From positions 1 to 27,460 of the forward strand of contig CAZJAE010000001.1 in assembly GCA_964544205.1 (NCBI GenBank): a DNA stretch of 27,460 nt, written 5' to 3'. The position numbers and the translations under genes were made by a program. A model generated the notes under the pieces. The model was not told the DNA's origin. It was given only the letters and a program-made list of their open reading frames with translations, and searched no databases. The DNA is from an uncultured archaeon (GTDB lineage: Archaea > Iainarchaeota > Iainarchaeia > Iainarchaeales > JAAZKV01). Shown piece after piece: positions 1,472-26,074 of the stretch. The first letter of the stretch is position 1. The number at the start of each line of letters is the position of its first letter.

Positions 1472-1569
1472 ATGTACCAATTTTCCTCTGTCAAGTATAT
1501 AAATTGTATTTTGTGGGCAGGTTTTTAATCAGAAATTGGGTTAATTATTGGGTATTTAGGGGTTATTTT

Positions 1570-3042
1570 TTGGCTTCCTCGAAGCACTTTTTAGATAAAA
1601 AGGCGCAGTCCGCGCTTGAGTTTTTCTTAAATTACGGTTTTTTTATTGTTGTAGTAATTGTGGTTCTCGGCGTAATAATGCTTATTTTGGACCCTACTGG
1701 TTTTGGTATTCTTTCTTCGTCAGAAAAAACCCAGCGTCCTATTGGGGAGGCTGTGGTTCTTGAGGATGTTTTTGTTGATACTGACGGCGATGTTGGTTTT
1801 TCTGTTTTTAACAGGACGAGGGATGATGTTACGATTGTTGGTTTTAGCATTGGGAATGCTGATTATCCTATTGAATCCGGTTCGCCTTCTGTTGTGGCTA
1901 ATACGAGCAAGTCTTTTTACGTTCCGCGTGCGGTTAATTGTCCTACTGGGGCTTGTTCGCTTGGGCAGTTCTCGATTAAGTATGCTTCAAAGTACGGACT
2001 TGAGAGGAGTCTTGACCAGGGGGAAGTGATTATCAGGGAGCCTTCCTCATTGACGCGTTTAAACTTTGCAGGAGATTCTCTTGTGTGCGCGATTAATAAT
2101 GATGTTCGTGTGTGTTCGGAGGGCGGCGGTTCTGGGGTGGATACTAATTGGCAGACTTCTTGGAGCGAGCTTGATTCTAATCTTAAATCCACTTATCTTC
2201 AGACTCAAAACGGGGCTCTTTCTCTTCCGAGTATTTCCGGAAATAGTGGGAAGTATTTGTCCACTAATGGTTCTGCTTTGTCGTGGGAAGAAGTTTTGAG
2301 CGGGGGCGGTTCTGGTTCTGATACTAATTGGCAGACTTCTTGGAGTGATTTTGATTCTAATTTGAATTCTACTTATATTTCAAAAGAGTATAGAAGAGAA
2401 GTTAATTTTTTTGACGAGTTTGACGGAGCGACTACTGGGAATGACTGGACTGCAGTTAATTCAGGGACTGGGGCGGCAGAGTCTTTGCTTGACCCTGTGA
2501 CCAGTTCTGATTATTATGGAGTAATTAGATTTTCTACTGGAACTACTGCTACTGGGAGAGCTGCTCTTATTAGGGGGACGGGTAGTCTTCTTCTCGGCAC
2601 GGGGCAGTTTGTTATAGAGACAAGGGCGCAGTTTCCAACTCTTGCGGCGCTTGGGAATGATTATAGCGCTCAGTTTGGTTTGCATGACGCTGCTGCGAGG
2701 GACGCGGTTGACGGGGTGTATTTTCAATATGACAGGAACACTTATGGGTCTGATATTTTGCGGTGCGTCACTTCGAGCAACAGCACTAGGACTGTTGTTG
2801 TGAGTACTTTTACGGTTAATACTTCTTGGCATACATACAAGATTGTTGTTAATTCGTCAGGAACGCAGGCGGATTTTTACGTTGACGGCTCGATTGTGTG
2901 CGTTAATACTACAAATATTCCTACCGCTGCTTCAAGAGCCACTTCGCCAAGGATTCAGATTGTGAAAAACAGCGGGACTACTGCAAGGGAGCTTAGGGCG
3001 GATTATTGGTATCATGAGTTAGTATTCAATACTGCAAGGTGA
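1570..3042 (+). CDS. Class III signal peptide (type IV pilin-like) protein with repeated stalk and C-terminal beta-sandwich/lectin-like domain
   Basis: KKAQSALEF followed by a long hydrophobic helix. Probable TTG start at 1570 after an AGGGGT SD-like motif. The ORF-track extension to 1387 overlaps rnz and is unlikely to be real. Confidence 0.8.
2122..2376 (+). repeat. Intragenic direct repeat of about 75 bp, two copies 180 bp apart (2122-2196 and 2302-2376)
   Basis: Identical 26-bp core gatactaattggcagacttcttggag at 2140-2165 and 2320-2345. Encodes [25 protein letters not shown] twice. Confidence 0.95.
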
Positions 3043-3118
3043 TTTTTGGGGTAGTGATTTTTTCATTGCTTTTGTCCCATTAATTACCTTTTTTAATCCT
3101 TCATTGGAAGTTATTGTT

Positions 3119-12780: not shown

Positions 12781-13524
12781 ATGGAGCTTGTTTTGAAGAA
12801 CGCGGATGTTTTTAAGAAGAGCATGGAAGCTATTGCTGTTTTGATTGACGAGGCTGAGCTTGTTGTGTCTTCTAACGGGCTTGAGCTTAAAGCGACTGAC
12901 CCGAGTCAGATTTCAATGGTTGATTTTGCAATGCCTAAGTCCGCTTTTTCAAAGTTTGATGCCAGCGATATGAGGCTTGGGCTTGACCTTGATTATTTGA
13001 ATCAGGTTCTTTCAAGAGCCGCGAGCGGGGATGAGCTTGTATTGTCTGTTGACGATAAGAAGGCTTTTTTGACTGTTGCTTTTAATGGGCACGCTAAGAG
13101 GGCTTTTCAGGTTCCTTTGATTGATATTTCTACTTCGGAGGTTCCTAATCCGAGGATTGAGTTTGACGCAGAGATGGTTGTAGCCGCAAATTTTTTGCAG
13201 AGCGCGTTTAAGGACGCTGCGCTTATCAGCTCGCATGTTGTTCTTGGTTGTTCTGAGGACAAGTTTTACGTGAAAGCGAATTCTTCTAAGGGTAATCTTA
13301 ACGAGGATGTTAAAACCAACAAGACTTCTCTTCCCGAGTTGAGGGTTAAGAGGGAGTGCAAGAGCATGTTTCCGCTTGATTATTTGCAGGATATGCTTAA
13401 GGCTGCGGGCGGGGATGTTAAGGTTAATTTGTACTTGAAGTCAAACGCGCCTGTGAGGGTTTCTTACTCTATCGGTGAAGCGGGTATTAATTATTTCCTT
13501 GCTCCAAGGATCGAATCCCAGTAA
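12781..13524 (+). CDS. pcn: DNA polymerase sliding clamp PCNA, canonical-looking copy
   Basis: LKATDPSQISMVD, LGLDLDYL, FQVPLID interdomain loop and C-terminal YFLAPRIE. Confidence 0.96.
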   Translation: MELVLKNADVFKKSMEAIAVLIDEAELVVSSNGLELKATDPSQISMVDFAMPKSAFSKFDASDMRLGLDLDYLNQVLSRAASGDELVLSVDDKKAFLTVAFNGHAKRAFQVPLIDISTSEVPNPRIEFDAEMVVAANFLQSAFKDAALISSHVVLGCSEDKFYVKANSSKGNLNEDVKTNKTSLPELRVKRECKSMFPLDYLQDMLKAAGGDVKVNLYLKSNAPVRVSYSIGEAGINYFLAPRIESQ

Positions 13525-13576
13525 TTGTTTTTCCCAAAAAGCGTTTTTTGCGGAGTGTAAAAAGCGCTTTGACTAA

Positions 13577-13586
13577 TTATTAAATA
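13577..13586 (+). promoter_or_regulatory. Putative TATA box for the second PCNA gene
   Basis: TTATTAAATA ends about 30 nt upstream of the ATG at 13617. Confidence 0.5.
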
Positions 13587-13616
13587 CTTCTGAGTGTATA
13601 GTTTGTTAGTGGTTTG

Positions 13617-14333
13617 ATGCTTGAGTTGAAGAACAGCTTTTTTTTGAAATCCGCTGTGGAGTCTATTTCTTCTTTTATTCCTGAAGGGAATTTTCGTTTT
13701 TCGGATAAGGGGGTTTCTTTGAGGGCGATTGACCCAAGCCAAGTAGTGCTTGTTGATTATTTTGTCGATAAGAAGAATTTTGACAAGTACGTGATTGAGC
13801 CTAGTTTTGTCGGGCTTGATGTCGTAGAGCTTAACAGTATTTTGCAGCGCGCAATGCCTAATGACAAGCTTTTGATTGATGTTTCTGACGCCGAGCTTAA
13901 GGTTCGTTTCGAGTCCGAGCTTAAGAGGTATTTTAGGCTTCCTCTTATCGATGTTTCCGAGGGCGAGATTAAAGTTCCAGCGATTGAGTATGAGGCGAAG
14001 GTGGATATTCTTGCGCTGTCTTTTAAGGAGATTTTAAAGGATGCTTCTCTTTTCGGTTCGAGCGTGGTGCTCAAAGTTTCTGACGGAAAGTTTTTCATTG
14101 AGGCGAAGGGGGCTTCGGGTGTTATGGAGTCCGAAGCTACGCGTGTTTCAACAATCTCGACTAAGAAGGAGATTACTGCGAAGTTTTCGCTTAATTTTTT
14201 GCAGAATATAGCGCGTCAGGCGGATAATGAGAAGCATATTTCTATTGAGCTAAAGAATGACGCCGCCATGAAGGTGTCTTATTCCATTGGTCCGGGAAAG
14301 ATTGTTTTCTACCTTGCTCACATGATTTTGTAG
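13617..14333 (+). CDS. pcn: Second, divergent PCNA paralogue
   Basis: LRAIDPSQVVLVD, VGLDV, FRLPLID, KFSLNFL and FYLAHMIL. Collinear with the upstream copy over its full length. Confidence 0.93.
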   Translation: MLELKNSFFLKSAVESISSFIPEGNFRFSDKGVSLRAIDPSQVVLVDYFVDKKNFDKYVIEPSFVGLDVVELNSILQRAMPNDKLLIDVSDAELKVRFESELKRYFRLPLIDVSEGEIKVPAIEYEAKVDILALSFKEILKDASLFGSSVVLKVSDGKFFIEAKGASGVMESEATRVSTISTKKEITAKFSLNFLQNIARQADNEKHISIELKNDAAMKVSYSIGPGKIVFYLAHMIL

Positions 14334-14433
14334 AGCGGTTTTTGTTGTTGTCCTTTTTTTGGCGGTTTGCGTTTGCGCTGCTCGGCGGTTTGCTTTGCTT
14401 ATTTATTTAATGCTTTCCTAACAGGTTTGGGTT

Positions 14434-15495
14434 ATGGACGGGGTTTTTTTCGCTCAGAATTTTCCTTTCTCCGCCTCTGCGCGTAATCACTTAAAGAAGC
14501 TTGATATTCAGACTAACAGTATTTCTTCTTCTGCGATTAAGCGCGCTGAGTTGTTCATCGAGAAGGCTTTTTTTTCCGATAAGGATTATGCTTATCTTAA
14601 AAGTCCTTATCCTGAGGATCAGGAGAATAACATAGTGGCGTTTCCTGTGGCGAAAATGATTGTTTCCGCGATGAATACTCCTAATATTATTCATAAGTTT
14701 GCGAATTATTTTAGAATAAGGACTTTTAGCGTGCTTCAGAATTCTCTTGAGCGGAGGAATGATGATGCCATGGCGCTTGCCTCTGATTTTGGAATTCATT
14801 TTTCTCTTTCTTCTGACGGGAATTTTTTTGAAGTGCCTCTTGTTGAGTATTTGTCCATTCATTTTATGGATGATTCTTCCCGTTTAATTAATCGTCCTCT
14901 TGAGGGCGGGGTTGTCTCGCTGAATGCCGATGCTTTTTCGCGTTTTGTTGCCGAGCTTTCTTATTCCCGAATTTTTGATTCGCTCCCTATTTCGCGGGAA
15001 TCAATTCCTAAGCCTTTGTTGCTTTCAGCAAAATCTCTTGATTCGCGTCTTGTGGTTATTGAGAAGAGGGAGTTTGACGTGAAGCTTTCCGGAAAGATTG
15101 ACCCTGAACTTTTCCCCCCTTGTCTTGCGAATGCTTATACGAATCAGCTTGCCGGCAAGAAGCTCTCGTACATGGAGCGTTTGACGCTGGGCGGTTTTTT
15201 GCACAAGCTTGGAATGTCTAAATCCGATTTGCTTGTAGTGTTTTCAAAGAGTCCTGATTATGATCGTAAGATTGCAGAGTATCATATTGACAGGATTATT
15301 GAGAAGGATCTTGACGCGCCGGGTTTTAAGAAGATTCATGACGAGTACGGGATGAAGACTAAGGATTGCGATAAGGTTGAGGGCAAGTATCGTCACCCTA
15401 TTCAGTTTTACCTTGCTCGGCTTGCAGTGAAGAACAGGATGAAGAACATGCCAAAAAATAAGCCGGTTTTTAGCGGGGGCGGTGCGAATGTTTGA
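14434..15495 (+). CDS. priL: DNA primase large subunit PriL
   Basis: N-terminal FPF, INRPLEGGVV, FPPC, FSKSPDYD and HPIQFY motifs. Lies directly upstream of priS. Confidence 0.9.
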   Translation: MDGVFFAQNFPFSASARNHLKKLDIQTNSISSSAIKRAELFIEKAFFSDKDYAYLKSPYPEDQENNIVAFPVAKMIVSAMNTPNIIHKFANYFRIRTFSVLQNSLERRNDDAMALASDFGIHFSLSSDGNFFEVPLVEYLSIHFMDDSSRLINRPLEGGVVSLNADAFSRFVAELSYSRIFDSLPISRESIPKPLLLSAKSLDSRLVVIEKREFDVKLSGKIDPELFPPCLANAYTNQLAGKKLSYMERLTLGGFLHKLGMSKSDLLVVFSKSPDYDRKIAEYHIDRIIEKDLDAPGFKKIHDEYGMKTKDCDKVEGKYRHPIQFYLARLAVKNRMKNMPKNKPVFSGGGANV

Positions 15496-16630
15496 TTTGC
15501 AGAACTCGCAGGAAGCTGTTTTTTTAAGAGAGCATTTCGCAAAGTATTATTCCTTGAATGCTGTTGAGGCAATGCCTGATCTTGCGTTGAGGGAGTTTGG
15601 CTACGGGGTTTTTAGGCGCAAGATTGCGAATAGGAATATGGCTTTTTCTTCCGCCGCCGAGATGAACTTGTTTTTGCGGGAGAGCGTTCCGATGTTTTTT
15701 TCTTATTCTAATTCTTGTTATAATTTTCCGTCCAAGACTCCTACTTTTGCAAAGGGGTGGGTGAAGTCGGATTTGATTTATGAGTTTGACGCGGACGAGC
15801 TCGGGCTTGAAGTGGAGACTATTAACGGTATTCAGTGGTTTGAGGGGAGGCATCTTGAGGAAGCTAAGCGGCAGGTGTTTCGTCTTGTTGAATTTTTGGA
15901 GAATGATTTTAGTTTTCCTCTTGACTCGCTTGCGGTTAATTTTTCAGGCAAGGCTGGTTACCATGTTCATCTTCGCTGGGATAAGATTCAGCAGTTGAAT
16001 AAGCGGGCAAGAATCGAGCTTGTGGATTATTTGACCGGGCACAACATTGATTTTGTCCATTTGGGCTTTAATTTTGACTCGCTTCAGTGTCCTCCGTATA
16101 AGGGGCTTTGGGTTAAGCGTCTTGCCGCGGGCGTGAAGGATTTTTTCGCGGGCGATTCCAAGGTTATTGCGAAAGTAATGGGCACTACTCCAAAGAAAGC
16201 CGCTTCTTTTGCTTTGCTTGGCGGAAAGATTTTTGAGATGATGCAAAAAGGGCGTCTTTTTTCTTTTGATGCGAAAAGGGATGCTGAGTTTTGGGAGAAT
16301 ATTCTTTCTCACGTGGCAAAACTTGTTTCTGTTCCGATTGACCGCCAGACGAGCACTGATTTGAATAAGATTGTGAGGGTGCCAATGACTCTTCACGGCG
16401 ATACTGGGCTTTTGGCGAAGAAGGTTTCGCTTGATTCTTTGAAGACTTTTGACCCTTACTTGGAGTCAGTTGTTTTCGGCAAGGACTTGGTGAAGGTTCG
16501 TGTGATTAAAGCGCCTAAGTTTTCGCTTGGGGGCTCTGTTTTTGGTCCTTTTGAGGATGAAGTTGTTTCGCTTCCTTTGTTTTGCGCGGTTTATCTTGTC
16601 GGAAAAGGCGCCGCGCTTCTTAAGGAATAG
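15488..16630 (+). CDS. priS: DNA primase small (catalytic) subunit PriS
   Basis: REFGY, KGWVKSDLIYEFDAD, FSGKAGYH and IDRQTSTD...RVPMTLHGDTG motifs. 8-bp overlap with the priL 3' end (ATGTTTGA). Confidence 0.94.
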   Translation: MFDLQNSQEAVFLREHFAKYYSLNAVEAMPDLALREFGYGVFRRKIANRNMAFSSAAEMNLFLRESVPMFFSYSNSCYNFPSKTPTFAKGWVKSDLIYEFDADELGLEVETINGIQWFEGRHLEEAKRQVFRLVEFLENDFSFPLDSLAVNFSGKAGYHVHLRWDKIQQLNKRARIELVDYLTGHNIDFVHLGFNFDSLQCPPYKGLWVKRLAAGVKDFFAGDSKVIAKVMGTTPKKAASFALLGGKIFEMMQKGRLFSFDAKRDAEFWENILSHVAKLVSVPIDRQTSTDLNKIVRVPMTLHGDTGLLAKKVSLDSLKTFDPYLESVVFGKDLVKVRVIKAPKFSLGGSVFGPFEDEVVSLPLFCAVYLVGKGAALLKE

Positions 16631-16727
16631 TTTCTCGGATTGCTTTTTTGTTCTTGTTTTTCAACTTTGTCTCTTTGGATTGCTTTTTAATTAGTTTTGT
16701 TGTGCTTATTTTGGGGAACGGGGTTAG

Positions 16728-17264
16728 ATGCGAATTGATTATGACGAGCTTCGCAGGATTCATAGGCTTGAGAAGAATACGTCTAAGTTAGTCGAGGTTG
16801 AGGATGATTTTATCGACTCCGTCTCTGCTTTTGTTGATGAAGAGAAGAAGAAGTATCTCGCTTCTCTTAAGAATTTTTCAGCTTCCGACGCGAGGGAGTT
16901 TACTAACTTAAAGCGCGTGATTGAAGAGATTTTCATGATGCGCGAGAAGAAGATTTTAAACAAGGCGCTTATTACTGTGCACACTAAGGAAGTAAGCGAT
17001 GATAAAATGGCGAAGCAGGAGAAGGATGTTTTTAGAAAGCTTTTGAGGACTCTTGAGGAGCATCATGACATGCATCAGGCTTTTTTCGGGGATAAGGAGA
17101 AGAAGGATGCCCAGCTTGTTTCGGTTAAGATTTTGAAGGATATTCCGACTTTTGTGGGCACGGATATGAAGGAGTACGGTCCTTTTGCGGAAGGAGCGTC
17201 TGTTGAGCTTCCTGCAAAGGTTGCGCGTTTGTTTGTTACAAGAAAAATTGCCGAAGAGAAGTAG
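16728..17264 (+). CDS. GINS complex subunit (Gins15/Gins51 type)
   Basis: Helical A domain (EIFMMREKKIL) and C-terminal B domain VKILKDIPTFVGTDMKEYGPF. Syntenic with priS. Confidence 0.9.
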   Translation: MRIDYDELRRIHRLEKNTSKLVEVEDDFIDSVSAFVDEEKKKYLASLKNFSASDAREFTNLKRVIEEIFMMREKKILNKALITVHTKEVSDDKMAKQEKDVFRKLLRTLEEHHDMHQAFFGDKEKKDAQLVSVKILKDIPTFVGTDMKEYGPFAEGASVELPAKVARLFVTRKIAEEK

Positions 17265-17334
17265 TTTTTTGATTTTTTTCCCTTGCTGGCAAGTTTTTAA
17301 GCTGATTCTTTTAGTGTTATTTTTGTTGGTTTGA

Positions 17335-18096
17335 ATGGATTTTCCTAACCGTGATGATTTTGTTGTCGTTAAAGTTAACCAGATTCTGGATTACGGCGTT
17401 TTTGTAGAGCTTTTGGAGTATAAGCACGTCAGGGGTTTTGTTCACATCAGCAATGTTTCTAGTTCTTGGGTTAAGAATATTAGAAATTTTGTGAAGATGA
17501 ATCAGGTTAGAGCCGCTAAGGTTCTTAATGTTGACAAGGAAAAGAAGCAGGTTGACCTGGCTTTTGCCGGAATTAATCCGATGAGGGAGAGGCAGGTTCT
17601 TACGCAATTTAAGCAGATTAATAGGGAAGAGAAGCTTATTGAGATTTTGTCAAAGTCTACCGGCAAGCCGTTTAATGATGTCTGGGCAGAGGTTGCGGAG
17701 CCTTTGAATCAGGAGCACGGCTCTCTTTATGAGGCTTTTGAAAAGATTGCGCTTGGTTATGATCCTTCAGCAGTGCTTGCTAAGCAGTGGGTTGGTCCTG
17801 TTAAGGATTTGGTTGAGAAGAATATTGTTGTTTCTAAAAAGGAGATTACAGGCAAGCTTAAGCTTTCCTGCGCCAAGTCAAGCGGTCTTAGCGCTGTTAA
17901 GGACGTGTTGTCCGATGCCGAGGGCGTTAAGGGGTGCGAGGTTAGTTATGCCGGCGGGGGTTTGTTTAATATTGCCTGCTCGGGTTTGACTTTTAAGGAT
18001 GCTGACAAGGTTTTGTCGTCAGTGATTGAGGGCGCTGAGAAGAAGGCTAAGAAGCTTGGCGTTTCTTTTGAGTTCACAAGGGATGAAAAGAAGTAG
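17335..18096 (+). CDS. eif2a: Translation initiation factor aIF2 alpha subunit
   Basis: S1 domain YGVFVELLEY...GFVHISNVSSSWVKNIRNFVK, followed by helical and C-terminal alpha/beta domains. Confidence 0.96.
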   Translation: MDFPNRDDFVVVKVNQILDYGVFVELLEYKHVRGFVHISNVSSSWVKNIRNFVKMNQVRAAKVLNVDKEKKQVDLAFAGINPMRERQVLTQFKQINREEKLIEILSKSTGKPFNDVWAEVAEPLNQEHGSLYEAFEKIALGYDPSAVLAKQWVGPVKDLVEKNIVVSKKEITGKLKLSCAKSSGLSAVKDVLSDAEGVKGCEVSYAGGGLFNIACSGLTFKDADKVLSSVIEGAEKKAKKLGVSFEFTRDEKK

Positions 18097-18229
18097 CCCT
18101 TTTTTTCTTTTAAAGAAAGTCTTTTTTTGTTTTGTGTTTTTAGTTTTGTGCCGCGCTTTTTTTGGCTTTTCTGTTTTATAGTTGAGCTTTTTTGTTTTGT
18201 AGTTTTTGTTTCTTAGTTTTTTTAGCGGC

Positions 18230-18997
18230 TTAGTTTTTTTGTATTAGGTATATTGCGAACAGGTTTGGGCAGTTTAGTTCGCCGGTCTTGTCTTTTTTTA
18301 TCAGTTCTGAGTGGATTTTGAGGTTGTATTTTGAAAAATCGTTTATTGAGTATTTTGTGTACTCGATTCCGGCGTTTGTCAGTATTTGCTCCATTTCTTT
18401 TTTTGTCAGGGACGCGTTTAGGGAGCGGAGGAATCTTTCTTTTTCGTGTTTGTCGTTTATTGTTGAGAGTCTTTTTTTGATTTCTTCTTCTGGCGCGTCT
18501 CTTGTCAGGTCGAATATGTATATCATTCCTCCTTTTTTTGCGAGCATTAGTATGTCGTGCATTCCATTTTCAACTTCTTTTAGGTGGTGGAATGAGTCTT
18601 TTATTATGACGACGTCGTTTTCGCCCCGCGTCGGGTGGTAGTGTATGTCTTCTACCGCGAATTTTACAGGGTATTTTTTGTATTTTTCTTTTGCGGTTTT
18701 TATGAGTTCTTCGCTCGCGTCTGTTGCGCGGATGTTTTGGTTTTTTGTCAGTTCGAAGAGCGCGGCGGCGAGTTGTCCTGCTCCGCAGGCTATTTCGAGG
18801 ATGTTATCGCTGTGCGAGGGGTTTGTTTTTTCTATTATGTCCTGGGCGACGAGCCGGTAGGTAAGTGTTCTGTCGTCTTTTCGGTTCGCGTATTTTTTTC
18901 CCTCTTCTCCTGTTATTGCTTCTTCTTTTTCAGGAAACCTTATTTTTGGGTTGAATGTGAATTTTCCGGATTTTATAGGCATTATTGTCACTGACAT
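18230..18997 (-). CDS. Class I SAM-dependent methyltransferase
   Basis: Motif I ILEIACGAGQL, ATDAS, VEDI and SFHH...KKGGMIYIFD. Confidence 0.9.
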   Translation of the reverse strand: MSVTIMPIKSGKFTFNPKIRFPEKEEAITGEEGKKYANRKDDRTLTYRLVAQDIIEKTNPSHSDNILEIACGAGQLAAALFELTKNQNIRATDASEELIKTAKEKYKKYPVKFAVEDIHYHPTRGENDVVIIKDSFHHLKEVENGMHDILMLAKKGGMIYIFDLTRDAPEEEIKKRLSTINDKHEKERFLRSLNASLTKKEMEQILTNAGIEYTKYSINDFSKYNLKIHSELIKKDKTGELNCPNLFAIYLIQKN

Positions 18998-19123
18998 ATC
19001 TGTTTCATGCTTGTGTTTTAATTACTGTCTGTGTGGTTTTTCAGGGTTTTTGGCTTTATTAATGCGTCTTCTTTTCTTTGTTTGCAAGGCACGTTTTTAT
19101 TCCTTTTCTTTCAGATATTGGTC

Positions 19124-19903
19124 ATGCCTACTAGAATTCTTGTTACTAAAAAGACTAATCTTAAGGAAGCTGTGCTTATAGTTGGTTTGCCTGGTATTGG
19201 GCTTGTTGGCAAGATTGCTGTTGATTATTTGCTCAAGCAGTTTAAGACTGAAAAGATTGCGGAGATTCTTTCGGATTCTTTTCCTCCGAGCGTGCACACC
19301 AAGGATTCCAAGGTTTTTTTGATTAAGGATGATTTGTTTCACTTTAACTATAAAGGCAAGGATTTTTTGTTCCTGGCTGGTCCTGTTCAGCCCACTCTTG
19401 ATTTTAAAGTTGGTTCTTCTCACGAGCATTACGAGTTTTCGGAGACGCTTGTTAATTATTTTAAGGGCATTGGCGTTGTTGAAATAATAACTCTCGCGGG
19501 GATTAATGTCGGGGATAATAGGTTGAATAAGAAGCCTGAAGTGATTGTTGCCGGGACTGAAGAGAGTGTTGTTGAGCTTTGGAAGAAGTTTGGTGCAAAA
19601 GAGGATAAAAAAGAGGGTTTGATTTCTGGAGCCGCTGGTCTTTTGGTCGGCATTGGAAGGCTTCATAGCATTAAGGGCGCTTGTTTGATGGGCGAGACTA
19701 ATCCTCAGCTTGTTTACGGGGATCATGGGAGCGCGAAGCAGGTAGTGGAGCTTATTTCTAAGAGGTTTAATTTTACTGTTAAGATGAAGAGCATTGAAAA
19801 GGAAGCTAAGCAGATTGAGAAGACCTTTAAGGAACTTACAAGCGGTTTAGAGCATCCGGTTGAGGATGAGCCTAAAGCGGATAATTTGAGCTATGTAAGG
19901 TAA
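19124..19903 (+). CDS. PAC2-family proteasome assembly chaperone
   Basis: VGLPGIGLVGK, IITLAG, ISGAAGLL and CLMGET motifs. ATG at 19124. Usual position downstream of aIF2-alpha. Confidence 0.92.
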   Translation: MPTRILVTKKTNLKEAVLIVGLPGIGLVGKIAVDYLLKQFKTEKIAEILSDSFPPSVHTKDSKVFLIKDDLFHFNYKGKDFLFLAGPVQPTLDFKVGSSHEHYEFSETLVNYFKGIGVVEIITLAGINVGDNRLNKKPEVIVAGTEESVVELWKKFGAKEDKKEGLISGAAGLLVGIGRLHSIKGACLMGETNPQLVYGDHGSAKQVVELISKRFNFTVKMKSIEKEAKQIEKTFKELTSGLEHPVEDEPKADNLSYVR

Positions 19904-23488: not shown

Positions 23489-26074
23489 ATGAAAGGACTA
23501 AATGTTAAGAGAATAGCTGCTATCGGATTAGGAGCAGCTCTTGTTGGATCAGCTTTAGCACCAGGTGTTATGGCTGCAAATTTTTCCAACTTGGACACAT
23601 TGCAGAAATCTAACGTAATAGACGCTTCAGGATCTCCTGTTGTGGATATTGTTGTTGGAACAATCGGAATGCCAGAAGATGTAGTTTGGGCAGGTAACAT
23701 AGCTGCTAAAGTTGCACAGATGGCTGTAGTTCCGGCTGGCGGATCAGGATCAGTAGGCGAAAAAACTGTTACTTTAACGCTAGGTGGAAATGTAACAACA
23801 GCAGGTTCTGGAGAGACTGCGGAAGCAAAAGCTGCTTTCTTTGACAGCGAACCAGCATTTGTTGGTATTACAACTACAAGTACACAAATGCCGTCTTTGG
23901 TGAATAACCCTTCAGCAAAATATAGGTGGGGTAGCACTACTGACTCAACAACTACAGTTAGTGAAGATTTGACAGCTACAATTAATGCTAGCTTCCAGAG
24001 TACGCAGGGATCATCATATCACTCAGTAGGATCATTAATTGGTTCTATTGCAAGAGATGGGATCGCGTATAATGTAAACCTAGGCGCTGGAATTCCACTA
24101 ACATCAAACATGACTAACCTTGATGGAAACTCATCATACAGAATGCAGATTCCTTGGTTAGGAAAAGTATACACATTAGATCAGATTAATGCAACTAACA
24201 AGAGTTTGGTTTTCTATGCACAGACAACACCAATAACTCTTGATAAGGGTGAAAAACTATCTGTTAAGGCTGCAGATTCAAACAAGATGTATGATCTTGT
24301 ATTGACTGATATAACAAAAACTGCAGATAATGCAGAATATAAGGCATCATTTTCTCTAATGGATGGATCAACAACTGTTGATACACAAGACTCAATTACG
24401 TCAAATACTGACCTGAAGGACGAGTTCAGCGTAAAGCTAGACAGCGTTTACGTAACTTTCGTTGGTGCTAGTGCAACAACTTCCGGTAAGGCATATGTTT
24501 CACTAAGAACAGGAACTGACAGACTTGAGTTGAGAAACGGATACGGCTACCCATACACAGGAGACAACACGGTTGACTCAAAAGCTCAGTGGGAAGTTGT
24601 TTTCGACAGTACAACTAATGTTACAAAAATCAGTTTGAAGAATCAGTGGAGATACGATAAGTATGTTGGTGATGAAACTGACACTACTAAGTATGCTTTG
24701 ACTCCTGGCCAGGAAATTGTTTTGCCAAATAACTTCGCAAAACTAGCTTTCAATGGATTCCAGACTAAGGCTAACACTGAAGTTCAAATTGGTGCTGTTT
24801 CAGGAATATCAAACGGCGGAATTGAATATGTTGACATGAAAGGTGGAAACATAAAGGTTCCATTCTACGTTGAGACTAGTCTTGACTTCAATAAGGCAAG
24901 AACAGTTGATATCCAGGGAACAACATACACTCTATGGTTGGATCAGAACACTGCAACTAACGCTGCATTGTACTATAGAAAAGGAGATTATAGCTCAGTA
25001 ACAACTACTCCTACAGGAGCAGTTGCTGGACCATCGGTTAACGATTGGGTTGTAATCCAGAACATAAATGAGAATGCAATATCAAGAGCTGTTTCAGTTG
25101 ATCTTGGAGCAAGAGACTCGACAAACGGAATTGACTATATAGATTACAATTTCGGTTTCGATATAACTTCAGGAAATGTTGCGTTGGTATTGACTGGAAA
25201 CCAAACTTTCAGCCTATACAACAAAGCAAAGGCAGCAACTCCAAAGTTAGTGTTCCTTGATACAAACACAAACAACACAACAGGACAGCCATTGTATGTT
25301 CCTAATACACAGGACATAGCAACTATCTTCGAGGGAAATGTGCCAGCATATAACAGCAACAGATACAGCGCTGTTCATTTCCAGTACACAGACAACAATT
25401 CTGGGGTAGCAAACTTGTACACAAGAGCTACTGACGGAAGCGGAGTTTGGAACTACGAATCATTGAAGAATCCTTCATCAGGGACTTTAGTATACGGACC
25501 TACGATGGATGCAAACTACAATGTTGGTACTGGTTGGACTTCAGCTATTAGAGACGGTACAGATTACTTCAAAGAAGCATACACGCAAGATGGTACTAAA
25601 GTTGTTTCAGACAACTCAGTATTCAAATTGACTGTTCCAGACGAGCAGGCACTTCTTGAAGCATACTTGGGCGCTACTGCTGAATCAACAGTTGCTGTTG
25701 GTGGAAAAGAATTTACAGGAGTAAAAGAGGGAGACACAGTGTCAAACTCAGGCACAACTGTAACTGTTACTGGTATAACAGGCTCAGCTGCTGCAGGCTC
25801 AGGAGTAACTGTAACTAAGGTTGCAAACCTAGTAAAGTCAGACAAGATGTCAGCATACGGTAAATCAATCCTTGTTGGCGGATGGATGGCTAACACTAAA
25901 GTATCAAAGTCAATGATGGTTGGCGGAGAGACTCTAGAAAGCAGACTAACTGCTGCTGGAGACTACGTTTCAGCTGTTCTTGAGGACGGAAGCATCGTTG
26001 TTGCAGGATGGACTGCGGACGACACAGCTACTGCTGCTCAGGCATTGATCTCAGCTTTAGACGGTCTACAGTAA
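23489..26074 (+). CDS. S-layer (surface layer) glycoprotein
   Basis: Sec signal MKGLNVKRIAAIGLGAALVGSALAPGVMA, DVVWAGNIAA near the N-terminus, C-terminal ILVGGWMAN and IVVAGWTADDT motifs of Methanococcales-like S-layer termini. Thr/Asn-rich with many N-x-S/T sequons. Confidence 0.9.
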   Translation: MKGLNVKRIAAIGLGAALVGSALAPGVMAANFSNLDTLQKSNVIDASGSPVVDIVVGTIGMPEDVVWAGNIAAKVAQMAVVPAGGSGSVGEKTVTLTLGGNVTTAGSGETAEAKAAFFDSEPAFVGITTTSTQMPSLVNNPSAKYRWGSTTDSTTTVSEDLTATINASFQSTQGSSYHSVGSLIGSIARDGIAYNVNLGAGIPLTSNMTNLDGNSSYRMQIPWLGKVYTLDQINATNKSLVFYAQTTPITLDKGEKLSVKAADSNKMYDLVLTDITKTADNAEYKASFSLMDGSTTVDTQDSITSNTDLKDEFSVKLDSVYVTFVGASATTSGKAYVSLRTGTDRLELRNGYGYPYTGDNTVDSKAQWEVVFDSTTNVTKISLKNQWRYDKYVGDETDTTKYALTPGQEIVLPNNFAKLAFNGFQTKANTEVQIGAVSGISNGGIEYVDMKGGNIKVPFYVETSLDFNKARTVDIQGTTYTLWLDQNTATNAALYYRKGDYSSVTTTPTGAVAGPSVNDWVVIQNINENAISRAVSVDLGARDSTNGIDYIDYNFGFDITSGNVALVLTGNQTFSLYNKAKAATPKLVFLDTNTNNTTGQPLYVPNTQDIATIFEGNVPAYNSNRYSAVHFQYTDNNSGVANLYTRATDGSGVWNYESLKNPSSGTLVYGPTMDANYNVGTGWTSAIRDGTDYFKEAYTQDGTKVVSDNSVFKLTVPDEQALLEAYLGATAESTVAVGGKEFTGVKEGDTVSNSGTTVTVTGITGSAAAGSGVTVTKVANLVKSDKMSAYGKSILVGGWMANTKVSKSMMVGGETLESRLTAAGDYVSAVLEDGSIVVAGWTADDTATAAQALISALDGLQ

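Follow-up and report, generated by a model that had tools for sequence, protein, structure and literature searches.

A putative modular pilin-like adhesin of Iainarchaeia with a phage-fibre-like stalk motif and an exchangeable lectin-fold head

We analysed a 27-kb stretch of DNA from an uncultured archaeon (27,460 nucleotides; hereafter the window), in which a single open reading frame (ORF) on the plus strand, closed by a stop codon at 3040-3042, encodes a modular protein, the target of this study. In the target, a class III signal peptide and a pilin-like beta domain are followed by a stalk, in which two DTNWQTSW repeats flank an LPS...SW motif, and by a beta-rich C-terminal domain, the head. 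On balance, it is probably a modular type IV pilin-like (minor pilin) adhesin with pilus-linked display and an exchangeable binding head, and most likely a surface adhesin made from parts that are common to cells and phages. In its archaeal family, other binding modules take the place of the head on a shared scaffold. All of the elements had been described in a first-pass annotation of the window, and each was recovered where it had been placed. The architecture is not a chance product, since homologues with 47-49% identity to the target (P0002-P0006) retain both repeats and the head.

The N-terminal half is homologous to small archaeal pilins

The leader of the target follows the cut pattern KKA/QSALEF, where the slash marks the predicted cleavage (KAQSALEF at aa 11-18, nt 1600-1623), and the underlying motif [KR][GA]/Q...E[YF] was found to be common to P0002-P0006, to the homologues P0025 and P0108, to the small pilin L106 and to about 100 PF04021 proteins. 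It leads into a 28-residue hydrophobic stretch (aa 13-40) with a mean Kyte-Doolittle hydropathy of up to 2.8, and in the AlphaFold2 model a long helix at the N-terminus (aa 11-40) precedes a beta-sandwich whose predicted local distance difference test score (pLDDT) is 79-95 over aa 61-150.

In an exhaustive search, P0025 and P0108 aligned to the front half of the target and not to its head, with 34% identity over aa 59-239 (including repeat 1 and the LPS...SW motif) and 34% identity over aa 54-211, respectively; both carry class III leaders (KG/QGAAEF and NA/QGTIEY). A profile of the N-terminal module (N-module) built from these three sequences retrieved 135 proteins, mostly of about 150 aa and many with PF04021 matches, several of which, from Iainarchaeum or other archaea, are annotated 'class III signal peptide-containing protein'. 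Moreover, the gene for a small pilin of a close relative (P0173) comes right after those for a T2SSE ATPase and two T2SSF platform proteins; a layout with two platform genes corresponds to System 1, which has been reported in DPANN archaea (preprint 10.64898/2026.04.22.720090). The small class III pilins of Iainarchaeia and related archaea (PF04021/UPF0333; P0173, P0200 and L106) share with the target the leader pattern, the hydrophobic helix and a homologous beta-sandwich, and L106 and the target have the leader KAQSALE[YF] in common. They differ from it in their length of about 150 aa and in having neither stalk nor head, and some of them stand in an ATPase-platform operon. We take the N-module to be a genuine pilin module because of this profile homology, with the fold comparison in support: the best PDB structures in Foldseek were Pyrobaculum and Sulfolobus type IV pili, the Aap filament and FlaF/FlaG. 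The claim of the first-pass annotation that a class III leader sits on a pilin-like beta domain is thereby borne out. A word-index search with the N-terminal 207 aa had come back empty, missing even the protein of the window itself, and the profile search later worked; no relatives were confirmed when the N-module profile was run against the GTDB representative genomes.

The stalk shares one motif with phage tail fibres

The two 26-aa DTNWQTSW repeats are identical at 21 of the 26 residues and 65 of the 78 nucleotides, and were recovered independently by a repeat search. The repeat is conserved in all archaeal relatives and had no match in Pfam, PHROGs or the PDB. When the 90-aa stalk was compared with 50,697 phage genomes by tblastn, it matched solely through the LPS...SW motif. 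The best matches (62% identity over 29 aa, E 2e-4) were 'tail fiber' or 'tail fiber assembly' proteins of Synechococcus and Prochlorococcus myoviruses, as the first-pass annotation had stated for motifs of this type, and weaker ones were tail proteins of Caulobacter phages. A 22-aa counterpart of the motif is carried by the cyanophage S-WAM1, and the counterpart in P0025 reads LPSLTGQDGKCLTTNGADINW.

DTNWQTSW motifs were also observed in giant, secreted fibre-like proteins of at least 1772 aa (P0140, L102, L103 and L105), with 11-15 motifs per locus in the three loci counted. There they are interleaved with DANGFY/DVNIW repeats of about 27 aa, an unannotated repeat family; P0140 (2362 aa) starts with an ordinary signal peptide. 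The source organism of the window occurs in metagenomes of sludge and of mud. One contig of the same sludge sample (run X1) contains an exact 31-nt DTNWQTSW stretch (window 2313-2343) with different flanks and at four-fold higher depth; therefore, other genes with this motif coexist in the community.

The head has a ConA-like fold and close counterparts in phage proteins

The head matched the Pfam family PF22237 (SO2946-like_C) at aa 314-477 with an E value of 5.9e-11 and 43.1 bits, against a curated cut-off of 27 bits, over profile positions 1-162 of 163. The AlphaFold2 model, based on an alignment of 20 sequences, shows a beta jelly-roll at aa ~277-490 with pLDDT above 90. In the PDB, Foldseek matched it at about 1e-7 to concanavalin A (ConA)-like lectins and glucanases, and the list of folds also holds legume lectin, Emp46/47, calreticulin, botulinum toxin HC domains and carbohydrate-binding modules. 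Among these structures is SO2946 of Shewanella oneidensis (PDB 2a5z), on which the head superposes with an E value of 2.5e-7 and a template modelling score of 0.62-0.64 normalised to the target; SO2946 differs in being without a pilin module. SO2946 is located in the LambdaSo prophage region and has been described as a jelly-roll bearing a carbohydrate-binding module. The link to SO2946 rests on Pfam and Foldseek, since PDB sequence searches with the whole protein, the stalk segment and a profile matched no chain. The target protein had no match in NCBIfam, and neither the whole protein nor its segments hit a significant PHROGs family.

Far stronger structural matches were obtained among predicted viral structures (BFVD), where C-terminal domains of uncultured Caudovirales proteins scored E 3e-21 to 2e-15. 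Ranks 2-4 superposed with a root-mean-square deviation (rmsd) of 1.6-2.6 A over about 220 columns at 26% identity, and one Caudovirales match bears a 'major tropism determinant' N-terminal domain. At the sequence level, exhaustive phmmer gave 4711 matches with E up to 0.001, and of the 150 listed, nearly every one aligns to aa ~270-490. Where the core motif of the head could be located, it stood 159-180 residues from the C-terminal end, in proteins of 180-2300 aa. Homologues on phage contigs follow a minor tail protein (P0008, on a contig with DNA polymerase A and ThyX), lie between a holin and an M15 peptidase (P0012), or follow a head protease and a portal protein (P0016). The head of such Caudovirales tail-fibre proteins (these three, and A0A6J5N4L8 and A0A6J5KVE3 in BFVD) shares 34-42% identity with that of the target by BLASTP; as in the target, it invariably forms the very C-terminus, with ...TT.R at its end. 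Some of these proteins also have an LP.G..GQ.L..DG...W motif just upstream of the head. They differ in lacking a class III leader, in their shafts, the N-terminal parts of P0008, P0012 and P0016 bearing collagen-like and GLSNVDNTSD-type fibre repeats, and in being encoded beside tail, portal and lysis genes. The target is encoded not within a viral tail module but on a cellular chromosome with conserved Iainarchaeia synteny. Tail-fibre homologues do exist, so that their absence, which the first-pass annotation had named as a ground for refutation, does not apply; its description of the head as phage-fibre-like and lectin-like agrees with the ConA-like fold, the nearest structures and the phage contigs.

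The head was also found outside viruses. About 14 of the best 164 head homologues have ordinary signal peptides, and in view of these Sec-secreted cellular bearers the head is not exclusively viral. We had also considered that the LPS...SW motif and the head were inherited as one phage-fibre unit; this idea was dropped because the motif stands just upstream of the head in only 4 of the same 164 homologues (the target, P0009, P0012 and P0059).

Heads are exchanged within the family

The search for the same N-terminus with other heads, which the first-pass annotation had recommended, was productive on two scaffolds. On the scaffold of the target, P0025 continues into a long fibre with a C-terminal Peptidase_S74 domain (E 6.6e-11), P0108 ends in a discoidin-like or DUF5000 domain, and the pilin module of L009, the closest genomic relative, is followed by yet another fibre sequence. 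Peptidase_S74 is the intramolecular chaperone of phage tail spikes and fibres; in the target itself, Pfam found no S74 domain. The second scaffold has the leader KAQAGTEYLMIAAFL, a distinct N-domain and both DTNWQTSW repeats around a Cys-containing insert. It bears the SO2946-like head in P0002-P0006 and L095, and in L094, L096 and L097 a different head ending in ...AGSWCLYTQG, for which Pfam gave no match. Lcl_C or Laminin_G_3 heads were found in other family members, and P0021 has the stalk and head behind an apparent ordinary signal peptide. P0108 adjoins two further large class III proteins of 1195 and 648 aa.

Three side observations concern related loci. A head of the ...AGSWC.YTQG type also occurs in L093 and L111. 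The class III leader proteins of 1195 and 648 aa were located at L007 874-4461 and 8177-9304 and at L008 3666-5612, the 648-aa protein being rich in GLUG-like repeats. L089 encodes at 13045-19323 a 2092-aa surface protein with several Laminin_G_3 domains; large surface proteins of the relatives lie near pilin genes.

Genomic setting

The window is a piece of core archaeal chromosome, with genes for tRNase Z, LonB, DUF373, an SPFH protein, Csl4, two PCNAs, PriL, PriS, GINS, eIF2-alpha, UDG and an S-layer-like protein. The LonB of the window shows 82-88% identity to its counterparts in uncultured archaea, Candidatus Iainarchaeum and Candidatus Forterrea among them, and on this basis the organism belongs to the DPANN class Iainarchaeia; the first-pass annotation had rightly supposed a DPANN cell. 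The gene order orf28, tRNase Z, LonB, ..., DUF373, SPFH, Csl4 is conserved in relatives. In seven relatives, tRNase Z and LonB are separated by a spacer of 160-330 bp; two others have unrelated genes there, and only the source genome has the target. We therefore class the target as an accessory gene, specific to its lineage, in a slot whose content varies. This slot spans 1481-3118 in the window; the corresponding places in L009 (4178-5263) and L010 (4821-6000) hold unrelated minus-strand ORFs of 252 and 273 aa. No second class III leader was found in the window.

Favoured reading and its alternatives

If the target is a modular pilin-like adhesin, prepilin peptidase would cut between Ala12 and Gln13, and the N-terminal helix would anchor the protein within a type IV filament or at its tip, the filament being built by the ATPase and platform machinery of the cell. 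A placement at the tip would resemble that of the modular pilin PilC of Streptococcus sanguinis. The stalk would keep the head clear of the cell, the head might bind a glycan on the surface of another cell or of a substrate, and an exchange of heads would alter the binding specificity. Pilus display, the binding of a glycan, any part in attaching to a host and an origin from viruses have the standing of inferences; display on a pilus and host recognition, both put forward in the first-pass annotation, stay at that level.

Several observations weigh against this reading. The PF04021 profile, a model of only 27 positions, did not match the N-terminal 54 aa or the whole target at E up to 10. Support for the leader call therefore comes from the motif pattern and from homologues that the profile does recognise, namely P0108 (E 0.0014) and most N-module homologues, which have precomputed PF04021 matches. 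The pilin matches of the N-module in Foldseek are marginal (E 1e-3 to 1e-2, with high rmsd), both repeats are drawn as helical in a stalk that AlphaFold2 models with low confidence, and the suggestion that the head may bind carbohydrate comes from its fold. Genes for a pilus ATPase, platform or prepilin peptidase are absent from the 27-kb window, the scope of all pilus-gene negatives for the source organism, and the target lies outside any pilus operon, as does the P0006 locus. The search for pilus machinery suggested by the first-pass annotation thus succeeded in part, with an ATPase gene and two platform genes in the close relative and none here. Furthermore, archaeal class III proteins are not always filament subunits, as exemplified by bindosome-type substrate-binding proteins (preprint 10.64898/2026.04.22.720090). 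The transcript trace is also weak; it consists of a handful of exactly matching 151-nt contigs from two 'metagenomic RNA-Seq' runs in which DNA may be present, and these public-run data were set aside as too thin to serve as evidence of expression.

Some of these points fit a protein that is processed at its leader and yet is no pilus subunit, such as a membrane-anchored or bindosome-like surface adhesin or a polysaccharide-capturing protein. Substrate-binding proteins of class III have a wide distribution among archaea (preprint 10.64898/2026.04.22.720090), the P0108 locus is likewise away from pilus genes, and an ectodomain of 450 aa would be awkwardly bulky inside a filament. We regard this alternative as unlikely, though deserving of attention, because the N-domain is homologous to small pilins encoded in operons, Glu+5, typical of assembling pilins, is conserved, and bacterial modular pilins with equally bulky modules are predicted at pilus tips (PMC9934059). 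The head might instead be an enzyme, a glucanase or another polysaccharide-degrading activity, which would make the protein a surface-tethered hydrolase rather than a lectin. Beta-glucanases of glycoside hydrolase family 16 (GH16) are indeed among the top PDB folds (e.g., 1byh and 3dgt, E ~1e-7). Against this, the GH16 catalytic motif E-x-D-x-x-E is absent from the head, which scores just as well against lectins, toxin receptor-binding domains and phage carbohydrate-binding modules, and the closest relatives are fibre tips; a hydrolase appears quite improbable.

The motif and head that the target shares with phage tail fibres, together with its lineage-specific insertion in the variable tRNase Z-LonB slot, would also suit a viral gene, that is, the receptor-binding fibre of an integrated or defective archaeal virus, recently captured and of no service to the cell. 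Only one gene is inserted, however, and neither an integrase nor a capsid gene nor any other viral gene lies in the 27-kb, otherwise core window; a cellular pilin module makes up the N-terminal half, and the scaffold families lie on cellular contigs of up to 509 kb. The GC content and codon usage of the target are typical of the plus-strand genes of the window, and recent horizontal acquisition was rejected on this basis. We therefore consider a viral gene very improbable indeed. The term 'virus-derived' in the first-pass annotation also says more than was established, given that the head ends Sec-secreted cellular proteins too and that the composition of the gene is native to the window; any transfer between cells and phages may have gone either way.

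A bolder form of the pilin-like adhesin reading can be drawn, in which homotrimeric, tail-fibre-like fibres would seed or cap a type IV pilus with their three class III helices, so that the tip of a DPANN pilus would be a phage-type receptor-binding protein and a cassette of exchangeable heads shared with viruses, comprising SO2946-like, S74-bearing, discoidin-like and unannotated ones, would set the partner cells. We hold this version to be doubtful.

Precedents and significance

Two modular pilins of S. sanguinis, PilC and PilB, occupy the tip of its type IV pilus (PMC9934059, PMC8179133), and for PilC a ConA-like lectin module has been modelled at the tip and a role in adhesion proposed (PMC9934059). 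We regard PilC as the closest functional precedent. It resembles the target in its class III leader, its short pilin moiety and the C-terminal module grafted on behind. It differs in being bacterial, in being encoded inside the pil locus, in its bacterial-type pilin moiety and in having neither tail-fibre-like stalk repeats nor an LPS...SW motif, and no sequence homology between PilC and the target was detected.

The MAT fibres of Bdellovibrio bacteriovorus are cell-encoded, surface-displayed and phage-tail-fibre-like, and recognise surface glycans of other cells; a beta-rich domain, conserved and about 130 aa long, follows their signal peptide and precedes a shaft and exchangeable tips, with S74 and non-S74 subgroups (PMC10769870). 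This family is the closest architectural precedent, the likeness being one of architecture only: a conserved N-domain, swapped heads and, in P0025, one S74 relative. MAT fibres have an ordinary signal peptide in place of the class III pilin leader of the target, and beta-helix or beta-prism shafts. Their trimerisation is proven, whereas for the target it would be a conjecture. We rate the target as an extension of known modular pilins and chimeric fibre adhesins.

To our knowledge, how DPANN archaea recognise or hold other cells or surfaces is largely unknown. The family described here offers a concrete architecture, in which an anchor of pilin type and a stalk bear a binding head that can be swapped. 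Its parts join two fields, that of modular pilins, so far mainly from one Gram-positive bacterium, and that of chimeric adhesins resembling tail fibres, as known from the predator Bdellovibrio. Should the heads determine partner specificity, a comparison of heads across genomes could predict the associations of uncultured archaea. The overlap with phage receptor-binding domains would also point to an exchange of binding modules between cells and viruses in competition for the same surface ligands. In the literature, within the incomplete coverage of our searches, class III signal peptides and tail fibres were found together only with respect to pilin deletions and virus resistance in Sulfolobus, and tail fibre, pilin, DPANN and archaea together only in a review of archaeal virus entry and egress; we count this scant overlap as weak evidence of novelty.

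Start codon, promoter-like element and feature coordinates

Two in-frame start codons are possible, TTG 1570 (490 aa) and GTG 1513 (509 aa; the public gene call P0001). TTG 1570 is the likely start because it gives a 12-residue basic leader that matches the homologues, and because the TTTTTAATC element upstream of it (Table 1) would set the transcript start downstream of 1513. GTG 1513 was accordingly dropped; it would give an aromatic-rich leader of 31 aa and lies upstream of the promoter-like element. A second copy of TTTTTAATC precedes LonB at 3090-3098 and is conserved in the tRNase Z-LonB spacers of relatives. The resemblance of the two places extends to an 18-nt promoter-like element (TTTTTAATC...TTGG) at 1522-1539 and 3090-3107, upstream of the target and of LonB, whose copies are 78% identical.

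Table 1. Coordinates of the target gene, of the putative promoter element and of the segments of the predicted protein
Feature	Position in window	Strand	Details and basis
Promoter-like TTTTTAATC element, putative archaeal TATA box	1522..1530	+	About 40 nt upstream of TTG; putative function
Coding sequence of the modular pilin-like adhesin	1570..3042	+	490 aa and stop, start TTG; ORF list, homologues, codon usage
Class III leader peptide, aa 1-12	1570..1605	+	Predicted prepilin-peptidase cut after Ala12; motif [KR][GA]/Q...E[YF]
Predicted mature N-terminus QSALEF (Gln+1, Glu+5) and hydrophobic alpha-1 helix, aa 13-40	1606..1689	+	Hydropathy, AlphaFold2
Pilin-type beta-sandwich with four conserved Cys, aa 55-184	1732..2121	+	Profile homology, AlphaFold2, Foldseek
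Stalk repeat 1, 26 aa	2122..2199	+	Conserved in P0002-P0006, P0021, P0025 and P0108
LPS...SW motif, 21 aa	2224..2286	+	Common to phage tail-fibre proteins
Stalk repeat 2, 26 aa	2302..2379	+	83% nt and 81% aa identity to repeat 1
SO2946-like jelly-roll head, ConA-like lectin/glucanase fold, aa 280-490	2407..3039	+	PF22237, AlphaFold2, Foldseek

Other features of the window and of related loci

A strand asymmetry runs through nearly the whole window (1-27460), with a GC skew of about +0.2 and an AT skew of about -0.3, and the codon usage of minus-strand genes differs markedly from that of plus-strand genes (Jensen-Shannon 0.2-0.3 vs about 0.1). A compact replication cluster occupies 12781-17264, in which tandem PCNA paralogues (12781-13524 and 13614-14333) are followed by the primase large and small subunits and GINS. 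At 23489-26074, an 861-aa Thr/Ser-rich secreted protein is encoded, which is probably an S-layer protein, as suggested by a weak S_layer_C match (E 3e-4, below the cut-off). In two relatives, LonB is split by about 3.8 kb (L053, 1553-2170/6001-7305; L057, 1255-1875/6001-7302), which could be due to an intein or another mobile insert.

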